The position numbers and the translations under genes were made by a program. Below, piece by piece: positions 32,390 through 35,889 of a stretch of DNA of 64,000 nucleotides. The stretch is from Escherichia phage E20. Where the stretch lies: the sequence record OP745616, one strand, 5' to 3'. Every line of letters starts with the position of its first letter. The stretch's first letter is position 1. The notes beneath the pieces were generated by a model that did not search any database, was not told the origin of the DNA, and worked only from the letters and a program-made list of their open reading frames with translations.

Positions 32390-33394
32390 TCTGGTAGGTG
32401 GCTCAGAAGCTGCTGCTAGGTGTGGTAGTGTTTATAGTCCTGATGCTACTACTGGTCAGGATTATAGACGTGTCGGCTCCATACATAGCTTTTATCATCA
32501 CTGTCATTATCCTGTGGAAATGCAGTGGTAAACACGGTGGTGACAAGCCGCCAGAATAACAACAACCGAACCAGTGGATTGGAATACTCTCCCCAGTCCA
32601 TTGGTTCAATCGGGGTTACTATGAACAAATTTACTATTCACTGGCTCAATGGAAAGGTTAGTTCTTTCATGGGTGGAGAACCTGCTGAAGGAAGCATTGA
32701 AAAAGAGTAGTTAATATCGTGAAGGGTTCTGTTAGAATCTTTTGAGATAGGAACTCCTATCATAACCTTTCTTAACTTAATCTTTGCCGTATGGCACTGA
32801 CGCTAGGGGTGGCCCCCCATCCGTCAGACAGACTATTTTAAGAATGGGTTATCTCAGAAAATGTAAAGCAACATTCGGGTTAATCAATGGCCTCTCCTAT
32901 AGGGGCCATTTCTGAATCTTAGGCTATATCCCAAAGGTTAGTATCTTTGGGATAAGGCTTCAGATCCCTTATCAAACTAACCGCTCATGTTGAGCATATT
33001 AATTAACCCAGCCCACTAAGGGGGCGGGAGTTTAATGCCGGTAAGCATAAGCCTATCCGACTACAACATCGAACTGTTAGGTCTTACATGCAACATAGGG
33101 TATAAAGGGAGGATTCGTCCCCTCCCTCCTATTATGAACTACCGGAGAGTGCATTAGTTGATTAGCTGTGGAAGGTAGGCCGATGTCCACAAGCGTGGCC
33201 CAGAGCTAGTGTACTCCCCGATAGTTTTCGTAGCGATTATGCGGTTTTTTAGAAACGAACCAATAACATAAATGCAAACGAAGAAGCGTATCTGATGGTC
33301 GCCTAACAGCGTAACCTCAGTCAGGAGTGAGTCGTCCTGATTATCAAACGACCATGGAGTTCTCCCGTCCATGTATTAGAAACGGGGGGCCAAT

Positions 33395-33646: not shown

Positions 33647-33724
33647 TGTGGGTGAGCATACGGTTATGCTACAGGCTTCCACACCTGTATGTGAAGTGAG
33701 GTTCAACTCCTCCGCCTGCAACCA
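33647..33724 (+). tRNA. tRNA-like gene with encoded CCA; anticodon loop non-canonical by hand fold (8-nt loop CTTCCACA)
   Basis: Acceptor TGTGGGT/GCCTGCA (7 bp, 3 G-U), D-arm GCAT..ATGC, anticodon stem ACAGG/CCTGT, T-arm TGAGG-TTCAACT-CCTCC, ACCA 3' end. Confidence 0.4.
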
Positions 33725-34291: not shown

Positions 34292-34364
34292 TACCCGGTA
34301 GGCTTAGTGGCAAAGCCCCACTAGTAAACTAACTAGGACGCAGGTTCGAATCCTGCCCGGGTAA
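34292..34364 (+). tRNA. tRNA-like gene; canonical acceptor, D and T arms, but anticodon loop folds as 6 nt
   Basis: Perfect 7-bp acceptor TACCCGG/CCGGGTA, D-arm GGCT-TAGTGGCAA-AGCC, T-arm GCAGG-TTCGAAT-CCTGC; anticodon stem CTAGT/ACTAG with loop AAACTA. Confidence 0.45.
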
Positions 34365-34373
34365 TCATACTAT

Positions 34374-34447
34374 GTCCACTTAGCTTAGACTGGGAAAGCA
34401 ACCGACTAATAATCGGAAGGTCACTGGTTCAAATCCAGTAGTGGACA
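34374..34447 (+). tRNA. tRNA, anticodon AAT by hand fold (would read Ile codons if A34 modified); needs tRNAscan confirmation
   Basis: Perfect 7-bp acceptor GTCCACT/AGTGGAC, D-arm GCTT-AGACTGGGA-AAGC, anticodon arm ACCGA-CTAATAA-TCGGA (C32 U33 ... A37 A38), T-arm ACTGG-TTCAAAT-CCAGT. Confidence 0.55.
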
Positions 34448-34683
34448 CCCATTCAGCAGTAACATAGTCCTGATTGCATAGCACTCTAAAGACAACACTG
34501 GTAAGACAGTCCAGTGGCTGCTAATGTATTGTTATTCCCCTCGACGGGAATTTCGCTAGTGAAGGTAACACTTAAAAATCCAAACCTACGTCTTACTACT
34601 ATCGGGCTATCAACCCACGGTCGCTTAACCCACTAGTGGTAGTAGTTTGACGGCCTGCCTCGTTGACTGCGTTAAAGTCACTA

Positions 34684-34720
34684 AGTCCCCTGGAGCCGTC
34701 ACTCTGGGGGACTTTTTTAT
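34684..34720 (+). terminator. Rho-independent terminator closing the tRNA-like region
   Basis: GTCCCC ... GGGGGAC stem then TTTTTTATTT. Confidence 0.6.
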
Positions 34721-34877: not shown

Positions 34878-35270
34878 ATGAGGCTAATAATGGCAACAGT
34901 AAGTAAAGAATCAATCGAAGCTAAGATTAAGAGCGTCTACTATTTCAATGGTGCTGATGCAGTAAAGTCTGCCTTCGTTAACCCTTCTGCACTTCCGGCA
35001 GATGATTTGACTAACCTGGGCCTAGTAACATACTGTATTATCATTCTGGAAAATGACTTCAAAGTTGAAGGTGTATCTGCCTGTGTTGACCCAGCTATCT
35101 ATGATGAGCAGAAAGGCCGTCAGTATGCATATGAGAATGCATTCAATAAGATTTGGGAATTGGAGGGTTACCTCCTACGTCAGGCACTGCATGAGAAAGA
35201 GGAGACTGCTAAGGCTCTGGCTTCCTTTGCAGAAAACAACACCTGTGATGGTGGTGGTTGCACCATTTAA
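34878..35270 (+). CDS. Hypothetical protein (130 aa)
   Basis: ORF after tRNA-region terminator. Confidence 0.45.
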   Translation: MRLIMATVSKESIEAKIKSVYYFNGADAVKSAFVNPSALPADDLTNLGLVTYCIIILENDFKVEGVSACVDPAIYDEQKGRQYAYENAFNKIWELEGYLLRQALHEKEETAKALASFAENNTCDGGGCTI

Positions 35271-35388
35271 CAAACAGGTATATGGTAGTTTTTACCGAAA
35301 GGTACTGAACTACCCGACATGTGGTAAGGCTCATGAAGCCAAAACAAAACAAGCCCTCCTAGTGAGGGCTTTATCATTTGAGGTAGTT

Positions 35389-35889
35389 ATGTCAGAAGAA
35401 ATTAAAGTTCACTTCACCAACTACATTGGAACCAAGTGTGTAAATGGTTTCAAGATGAACAAGGAAACATATTGCAAACTTCGTGGATGGGATGTGCCTG
35501 CTAATGAGGACCCGTTAGAAGTAGGTTACTTAGTAGAATACCCGGATTCTAAACCTAACCATGAGCAATTCCGTGGTTATATTAGCTGGTCACCAAGGGC
35601 TGCATTTGAAGCTGCATATTGTGATGTAGACAAAGGCTGCACGTTTGGTCATGCCGTAGAGCTTCTTAAAACAGGCTTCAAACTAGCCCGTAAAGGCTGG
35701 AACGGTAAGGGAATGTACATTGAGTATGTTGCCGCTGAAGAATGGAACAGCAGTAGCCTAGAGCGTCCAGGATTTGCCGATGAACTGAAGCCTCGACCGT
35801 GGATTGGTATCAAAACTGCTGATGACCAGTTTATGCCTTGGGTTCCTTCTCAATCGGATGTATTAGCCGAAGATTGGATAATTCTGTAG
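35389..35889 (+). CDS. DUF2829-like phage protein (KGWNGKG motif), 166 aa
   Basis: LARKGWNGKGMYIEY motif; ATG 35389 follows a hairpin at 35351-35372 (ORF track 35053 is an extension overlapping the upstream gene). Confidence 0.45.
   Translation: MSEEIKVHFTNYIGTKCVNGFKMNKETYCKLRGWDVPANEDPLEVGYLVEYPDSKPNHEQFRGYISWSPRAAFEAAYCDVDKGCTFGHAVELLKTGFKLARKGWNGKGMYIEYVAAEEWNSSSLERPGFADELKPRPWIGIKTADDQFMPWVPSQSDVLAEDWIIL

Follow-up and report, generated by a model that had tools for sequence, protein, structure and literature searches.

A conserved tRNA gene with the anticodon AAU in N4-like Escherichia phages, predicted to encode an AUU-reading isoleucine tRNA

Apart from tRNA-Arg(ACG), tRNAs with adenosine at position 34 are very rare in bacterial systems, and little has been established about natural unmodified A34 in living cells (PMC11066159). 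An anticodon loop of the kind described here has been characterized directly in one case only, an engineered M. jannaschii orthogonal tRNA, for which Schmitt et al. (2024) showed that the AAU version carries no inosine at position 34 in E. coli and reassigns AUU at 4.5%, AUC at 0.43%, AUG at 0.27% and AUA below detection (PMC11066159). The loop of that tRNA, described as identical to the tRNA-Arg2 loop, would read CU-AAU-AA, the same as the phage loop, and the host is the same; recognition by TadA depends on the loop sequence only (PMC11066159). The orthogonal tRNA has an artificial archaeal tRNA-Tyr body and is charged with tyrosine, whereas the phage gene is natural and carries bacterial Ile identity elements. 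Oenococcus oeni likewise has rare bacterial A34 tRNAs, four in number, of which two contain inosine and some appear to be unmodified, according to the account given of them in PMC11066159. Among the bacterial A34 cases found, there was no unmodified A34 in the split AUN box, in which AUG encodes Met. The A34 tRNAs of O. oeni are presumably not Ile tRNAs.

Eukaryotic cytoplasmic tRNA-Ile has the same genomic AAT anticodon for isoleucine, but its A34 is quantitatively deaminated to give IAU by the heterodimeric ADAT2/3, and the resulting I34 is a determinant for IleRS; an ADAT2/3-like activity is not expected in E. coli and none was found in the phage. The closest tRNAs outside the clade are the phage and prophage tRNA-Ile2 genes (ileX and ileZ of Stx phage 933W, and CAT tRNAs carried by rV5-like phages and by T4-like phages of Aeromonas and Vibrio), which share with the phage gene C4:G69, A37, A38, A73, a class I body, and an anticodon arm that is the same or has 1-4 changes. 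Both would be phage-borne accessory Ile tRNAs. However, tRNA-Ile2 (CAU), a type common in phages, has C34, depends on TilS and reads AUA, and its phage genes encode CCA, whereas the phage tRNA has A34, is predicted to read AUU, and has no encoded CCA. A wobble change likewise replaces the lysidine system in the TilS-independent tRNA-Ile(UAU) of Mycoplasma mobile (PMC3575796; PMC1635315), but that tRNA has U34, reads AUA, and is a cellular gene that replaced tRNA-Ile2 together with tilS rather than a phage accessory.

The tRNA-Ile(AAU) gene was located in Escherichia phage E20 (OP745616), of which a stretch of 64,000 nt, referred to as the window, was analyzed. The window belongs to a Gamaleyavirus of the G7C/PhAPEC5/Bp4 group, one of the N4-like Schitoviridae podophages of E. 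coli, and the 3 kb around the gene are 90-96% identical to phages of that group. The gene occupies 34374..34447 on the plus strand (positions 1-73, including the discriminator A73 at 34447). The Rfam tRNA model RF00005 matched it end to end (model 1-71 of 71) and scored 65 bits, the gathering score being 29 (E = 3.6e-13 over 3 kb, 7.6e-12 over the entire window), ARAGORN called tRNA-Ile(aat) at 34373-34451, and 19 distinct homologous copies showed covariation. The original prediction that all four arms pair well held for the acceptor stem (GTCCACT/AGTGGAC, 7/7 pairs, 34374-80 with 34440-46), the D stem (GCTT/AAGC, 4/4 pairs, D loop AGACTGGGA) and the T arm (ACTGG-TTCAAAT-CCAGT, 5/5 pairs), but it was slightly generous for the anticodon stem (ACCGA/TCGGA), in which four of five pairs form and a constitutive A.A mismatch stands at 27:43. 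The variable loop is 5 nt long (AGGTC), and the conserved tertiary nucleotides U8, A14, G18-G19, T54-T55-C56, and A58 are present. The 3' sequence runs on as ACCC, so that the CCA end is not encoded, and no ORF of at least 50 amino acids overlaps the gene. A minus-strand match to the model "Plastid-ycf2" (35 bits, gathering score 65.7) was discarded as the mirror image of the same gene. The cloverleaf is a genuine class I tRNA gene.

The anticodon arm (34401..34417, plus strand; ACCGA-CUAAUAA-UCGGA, with the A27.A43 mismatch and four pairs) was assigned by direct reading and comparison. Its 7-nt loop at 34406-34412 consists of C32, U33, A34, A35, U36, A37, and A38, placing the anticodon A34-A35-U36 at 34408..34410. 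The covariance-model alignment set AAU at positions 34-36 with maximal posterior probabilities, and the predicted reading of the loop agreed with this alignment, with ARAGORN and with published tRNAscan-SE calls. No covariance-model fold with a GAT or TAA anticodon and a better score emerged. The assignment to isoleucine was likewise borne out, as ARAGORN gave Ile(aat) and near-identical genes have been published as tRNA-Ile-AAT by tRNAscan-SE (PMC11927229). Relatives carry the gene in GenBank, usually under the label tRNA-Ile but also as "tRNA-Xle" and, in CU10EC, "tRNA-Ile(aat)". Because it is annotated there and named in at least one paper (PMC11927229), the gene itself is not a discovery; its anticodon is unusual, and no discussion of A34 in this tRNA was found in the literature searched.

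The best BLAST matches outside the clade, about 80% identical, were CAT tRNAs labelled tRNA-Met, tRNA-Ile, ileX or ileZ, carried by Stx phages and by T4-like Aeromonas, Yersinia, and Vibrio phages. The matches in E. coli genomes were prophage tRNA-Ile genes (CAT) beside antiterminator genes, and of the seven outgroups nearest to the gene, six were read as CAT by ARAGORN. Over the 17-nt anticodon arm, six CAT tRNAs showed 0-4 mismatches outside position 34, compared with 10 for GAT tRNA-Ile and 6 for Val and Arg tRNAs; the arm of the CAU tRNA in one IMG/VR contig (L007) was identical apart from position 34. Whole-tRNA identity was rejected as proof of tRNA-Ile2 ancestry, as it ranged from 70 to 81% across isotypes and did not discriminate between them: Val-CAC and Arg-TCT (shared T arm) also reach about 80%. 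The claim of ancestry therefore covers the anticodon arm only, together with the order of the BLAST matches. Judged by this comparison, the anticodon arm is of the tRNA-Ile2 (CAU) type with an apparent change of C34 to A, and the body outside the arm may be mosaic.

EcTilS requires both C4:G69 and C5:G68 (PMC12514573). The CAT outgroups retain both pairs, except for L007 with U5:G68, whereas tRNA-Ile(AAU) keeps C4:G69 and has A:U at 5:68 (G:U in seven of the 19 copies). The gene thus has neither the CAU anticodon with C34 nor the EcTilS pair set of tRNA-Ile2, and is related to it through the anticodon arm. When viral, metagenome, and genome collections were searched with the 3' half, which is invariant, no direct ancestor or variant with another anticodon came to light; the matches were AAT copies, an alternative allele (allele B), one unrelated GAT tRNA-Ile, and CPR-bacterial tRNA-Val genes only.

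The gene occurs at 90% identity or more in about 42 phage records in GenBank, and about 42 of 47 close relatives, defined as records sharing the downstream gene at 80% identity or more, have kept it. Between genomes its identity is 91-100%, whereas the mosaic 150-300 nt upstream of it cannot be aligned. The 19 distinct copies were gathered from GenBank, IMG/VR, and metagenome loci; part of this sample was retrieved by an exact 3'-half pattern, so that variation in the T arm is under-sampled. The loop CUAAUAA, and with it the anticodon, was invariant in all 19. Two-sided changes were found at 2:71 (UA/UG/CG), 29:41 (CG/UG/UA), and 30:40 (GC/AU), and 95% of stem cells were paired, the sole unpaired cell besides A27.A43 being A1.C72 in one copy (L055). 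Only one of 500 column shuffles attained the observed covariation score, and sliding of the stem partners reduced pairing to 17-46%; an earlier set of 13 sequences gave the same picture. One metagenomic lineage has G73 in place of A73. Since the clade is shallow (mean column identity of 97% among the 19 copies), the support from covariation is modest. Nevertheless, the invariant loop and the three compensatory stem pairs suggest that the fold is under selection, and this evidence, of moderate weight, argues against a dead gene.

Most of the E. coli Ile identity set (PMC9976931) is present, namely A73, A35, U36, A37 (the t6A site), A38, C4:G69, U12:A23, and C29:G41. C4:G69 and U12:A23 are invariant in the copies, and 29:41 is U:G or U:A in two relatives. 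Position 34, which is G or lysidine in the identity set, is A in all 19 distinct copies, and the D loop AGACUGGGA, numbered with A16 and G20, does not provide the determinants G16, D20, and D21 (G16 and U20 are absent). The MetRS determinant C34 is also absent. With the identity set largely present and C34 gone, isoleucine appears to be by far the most plausible identity, and charging by host IleRS would be expected. Recognition of G34 by bacterial IleRS1 involves stacking and main-chain hydrogen bonds with N1 and the 2-amino group, bonds that are not available to adenine (PMC11685878); with yeast IleRS, charging is about 16-fold worse for A34 than for I34. On account of these G34 contacts and the yeast defect, charging of tRNA-Ile(AAU) may be inefficient; no kinetics of a bacterial IleRS for A34 were found in the literature searched.

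Ile codon usage was counted in 47 long ORFs of the phage (ATT 62%, ATC 29%, ATA 9%), in its late and structural genes (ATT 70%, ATC 21%, ATA 9%), and in 40 annotated CDSs of E. coli (ATT 54%, ATC 38%, ATA 9%). The phage and host distributions differed (chi-square p = 6e-4), and AUU is the commonest Ile codon of the phage. The comparison of late genes with the host that had been proposed for this locus thus showed AUU to be raised (70% vs 54%) and AUA to be level (9%). Enrichment of AUU and not of AUA fits a tRNA that decodes AUU, and does not fit one that decodes AUA or carries inosine. It is a small shift, however, and the host reads AUU already by G:U wobble. E. coli has several copies of the gene for tRNA-Ile(GAU). 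Given these copies and the small shift, the benefit of extra AUU decoding is in doubt.

Taken together, we consider it somewhat better than an even chance that the gene encodes a functional phage elongator tRNA that is charged with isoleucine by host IleRS and reads AUU through unmodified A34. Under this reading, the host would supply 5' and 3' processing and CCA addition as well as the synthetase that charges the tRNA with isoleucine. A34 would remain unmodified and form a Watson-Crick pair with the U of AUU, with AUC being read weakly and AUA not at all. The change of C34 to A in an arm of the tRNA-Ile2 type would remove both the need for TilS and the MetRS determinant, and would move decoding from AUA to AUU, the Ile codon that the phage uses most. 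The position of the gene among aberrant tRNA-like genes counts against this explanation, and about five close relatives have a non-decodable allele at the locus, which indicates that an AUU decoder is dispensable.

From roughly 32.4 to 34.7 kb the window is poor in ORFs, and the gene is found close to the end of this stretch of about 2.3 kb, on the same strand as the early, middle, and replication genes; a minus-strand ORF of 3610 amino acids just downstream encodes the virion RNA polymerase. A strong hairpin resembling an intrinsic terminator (34683..34714, plus strand; 13-bp stem followed by a T run) stands about 235 nt downstream, where a terminator is annotated at the equivalent site in PhAPEC5 and PhAPEC7, and it is likely the 3' end of the tRNA transcription unit. 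A sigma-70 promoter scan gave 5 matches against 4.7 expected, and thus no promoter above chance. Further downstream on the plus strand are a gene of the N4 gp49/Sf6 gp66 family (34878-35270; PF13876, E = 7e-25) and an ORF (35053-35889) with a Tad2-like anti-Thoeris domain in its C-terminal part (PF11195, E = 5e-24), the domain being encoded about 600 nt from the tRNA gene. Relatives annotate anti-CRISPR or Tad2-like proteins downstream of the tRNA locus. With these two genes on its downstream side, the tRNA islet borders an anti-defence region.

The corresponding slot in seven distant N4-like contigs (L018-L024), about 700-1100 nt upstream of the gp49-family gene, holds tRNA-Asn(GTT) and tRNA-Gln(TTG) in six of them (none was called in L020), with tRNA-Tyr(GTA) in three and tRNA-Asp(GTC) in two in addition. 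The occurrence of ordinary tRNAs in the same slot in distant phages marks a variable tRNA islet, and the slot is a hot spot of tRNA exchange among N4-like phages. Queuosine is found in the tRNAs for Asn, Asp, and Tyr, which colicin E5 targets among others.

This setting bears on a first alternative, which also has the tRNA decode AUU but attributes its selection to resistance against nucleases that recognize G34 of tRNA-Ile(GAU), or C34 or lysidine of tRNA-Ile2, so that Ile decoding would be kept alive once host tRNA-Ile is cut. HepS, an anticodon nuclease of the HEPN type encoded by a Salmonella prophage, has tRNA-Ile(GAT) among its secondary targets, and its proposed preference is for U36 together with G at position 34 or 35, which AAU does not offer (PMC13043305); phage tRNAs have also been proposed to evade host tRNases by changes in the anticodon loop (PMC10264068). 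The nearby Tad2-like domain, the anti-CRISPR or Tad2-like genes of the relatives, and the tRNAs for Asn, Asp, Tyr, and Gln that distant N4-like phages have at this place are in keeping with such a role. However, the trigger of HepS is the tail-tip protein of a siphovirus and not a podovirus (PMC13043305), Gamaleyaviruses are not known to activate any such nuclease, none is known to limit Ile decoding in E. coli, the resistance of AAU to a nuclease is putative, and adjacency to anti-defence genes is circumstantial. We therefore regard selection by such nucleases as unlikely. The same view applies to the proposal that A34 is adaptive in itself, in that it may give an Ile tRNA which is independent of both TilS and TadA, lacks G in the anticodon, and could go on decoding AUU after attack on host tRNA-Ile(GAU) by a nuclease that is HepS-like or otherwise depends on G34. 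A paper on Schlafen and CbCash was set aside as not relevant, tRNA-Ile(CAU) being merely a model substrate there.

Two further tRNA-like genes were found upstream in the window. The nearer one (34292..34364, plus strand) ends 9 nt before tRNA-Ile(AAU) and was detected by the Rfam tRNA model with 40 bits, the anticodon arm being skipped, and by ARAGORN as tRNA-?(ac). Its acceptor, D, and T arms are good, and its anticodon arm has either 5 bp with the 6-nt loop AAACUA or 4 bp with an 8-nt loop. The gene is present in 19 phage records, labelled tRNA-OTHER, Undet-NNN or tRNA-Thr, and its loop varies in relatives (AAACTA or AAACCA); in two of the distant N4-like contigs (L022 and L023, 2301-2375), tRNA-Gln is followed by a homolog that is 78% identical and has a 9-nt loop. 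The gene in the window may encode a conserved tRNA-like RNA that does not decode and, judging from the 9-nt spacing, it probably shares a precursor transcript with tRNA-Ile(AAU). The second (33647-33724, plus strand) is a cloverleaf with the 8-nt anticodon loop CUUCCACA, called tRNA-?(Gly|Trp)(tcca) by ARAGORN at a relaxed threshold and matched by the Rfam tRNA-Sec model with 33.5 bits, under its gathering score. It has homologs in K57alpha1.2 (98.7% identical) and Bas96 (93.6%, with another loop sequence), and could be a quadruplet-type or degenerate tRNA.

At the locus of tRNA-Ile(AAU) itself, an alternative allele that does not occur in the window was found in Bas96, pSb-1, HK2, and two metagenome contigs (loci including L003 1930-2014, from Bas96, L051 and L053). 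This allele is 85 nt long and has the acceptor stem and T arm of tRNA-Ile(AAT) and a canonical D arm, and its anticodon domain consists of a 22-nt loop on a stem of 4-5 bp; it scores 54 bits with the Rfam tRNA model and is annotated as tRNA-Val. More than 120 Vi01-like Ackermannviridae phages infecting Salmonella and E. coli carry copies that are 91.5% identical, odd domain included, under the label "tRNA-OTHER". It looks like a widespread, conserved, and unexplained tRNA-like RNA.

Several other calls in the region were not retained. The "tRNA-Cys(ACA)", which would have been a second A34 tRNA, has no homolog in the window by blastn and showed poor acceptor and anticodon stems on inspection by hand, and the "tRNA-Ala(cgc)" was dropped likewise, having no window homolog and weak acceptor and anticodon stems. 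These Ala(cgc) and Cys(aca) calls (L012 360-431 and 723-801; L001 840-919; L035 583-662), from the Bp4/ECBP1/PD38 and UE/PBM groups, have been published as tRNAs and are probably degenerate tRNA remnants. At 33205-33353 (plus strand), the permuted tmRNA model matched weakly with 23 bits and the beta-tmRNA model with 17 bits, a stretch resembling a tag-coding region being included; a tmRNA was rejected there, as these scores are far under the gathering scores and probably due to chance.

The aberrant neighbours raise the question of whether tRNA-Ile(AAU) decodes at all, or is a tRNA-like RNA (a decoy, a regulator or a processing element) whose function resides in the acceptor/T-arm module. The alternative allele combines the same acceptor stem and T arm with a 22-nt "anticodon loop" and is conserved in Ackermannviridae phages, and both neighbours in the window have anticodon loops that cannot be decoded. 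On the other hand, the 7-nt loop with U33, A37, and A38 does not vary among the 19 copies and the anticodon stem contains two compensatory pairs, features that a function of the acceptor/T-arm module would not need and that point to a decoding tRNA. A non-decoding role is accordingly improbable in our judgement.

A decaying relic, that is, a tRNA-Ile2 gene inactivated by the change of C34 to A and persisting because the clade is young, would agree with the shallowness of the clade, the degenerate tRNA-like sequences in the islet, the missing CCA, the G73 and A1.C72 variants, and the loss of the TilS determinant C5:G68. We give this little credence, as all stem substitutions but one keep pairing, including the three two-sided changes, and the gene forms an island of conservation beside mosaic sequence and is kept in most relatives.

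It had also been predicted that inosine modification would be needed to read Ile codons. This was not supported, since A34 pairs with the U of AUU in Watson-Crick geometry and an AAU tRNA without inosine has been described in E. coli (PMC11066159). Conversion of A34 to I34, with reading of AUU, AUC, and AUA as in eukaryotic tRNA-Ile(IAU), would follow the eukaryotic precedent, in which AAU always becomes IAU and I34 is a positive determinant for IleRS in yeast, and it would preserve the AUA reading of the type from which the anticodon arm derives. However, E. coli TadA left AAU unmodified in the orthogonal tRNA, the loop of which would be the same (PMC11066159), and AUA is not enriched in the phage (9%, as in the E. 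coli sample). The loop differs from that of an Arg-ACG tRNA at A35 and U36, and no phage tRNA adenosine deaminase was detected: the CDA-fold deaminase motif [HC][AV]E...[PS]CxxC was not found in the six frames of the window, in which many ORFs have no functional annotation. The full annotation of the relative Bas96 lists a dCTP deaminase as its sole deaminase and no tRNA-modifying or repair enzymes, and the window homolog of this dCTP deaminase has the DCD/dUTPase fold. With no inosine on AAU in E. coli and no deaminase found, an AUU-specific decoder with unmodified A34 is predicted, and we hold an inosine tRNA to be very doubtful.

Finally, the suggestion that a shift of one nucleotide would give the anticodon UAA and a tRNA-Leu can be dismissed with near certainty: UAA does occur twice inside the loop CUAAUAA, but in both shifted frames position 33 would be C or A and position 37 would be U, and the anticodon stem would be lost; the covariance model places AAU at 34-36 with the highest posterior probabilities, and the 5-nt variable loop is at odds with the long variable arm of bacterial tRNA-Leu, a class II tRNA, so that the loss of U33 and of a purine at position 37, together with the short variable loop, excludes it on structure.

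If A34 is indeed adaptive, the gene would represent a natural, functional tRNA whose unmodified A34 serves a split codon box in bacterial translation, and it would be part of an islet of non-canonical tRNA-like RNAs beside anti-defence genes. If it serves ordinary codon supplementation, it would be a footnote to phage tRNA biology. As a naturally selected case of A34 in the best-studied host, present in about 42 sequenced coliphages, it would offer a test case for the acceptance of A34 by E. coli IleRS, for the modification state of A34, and for codon supply versus escape from anticodon nucleases.
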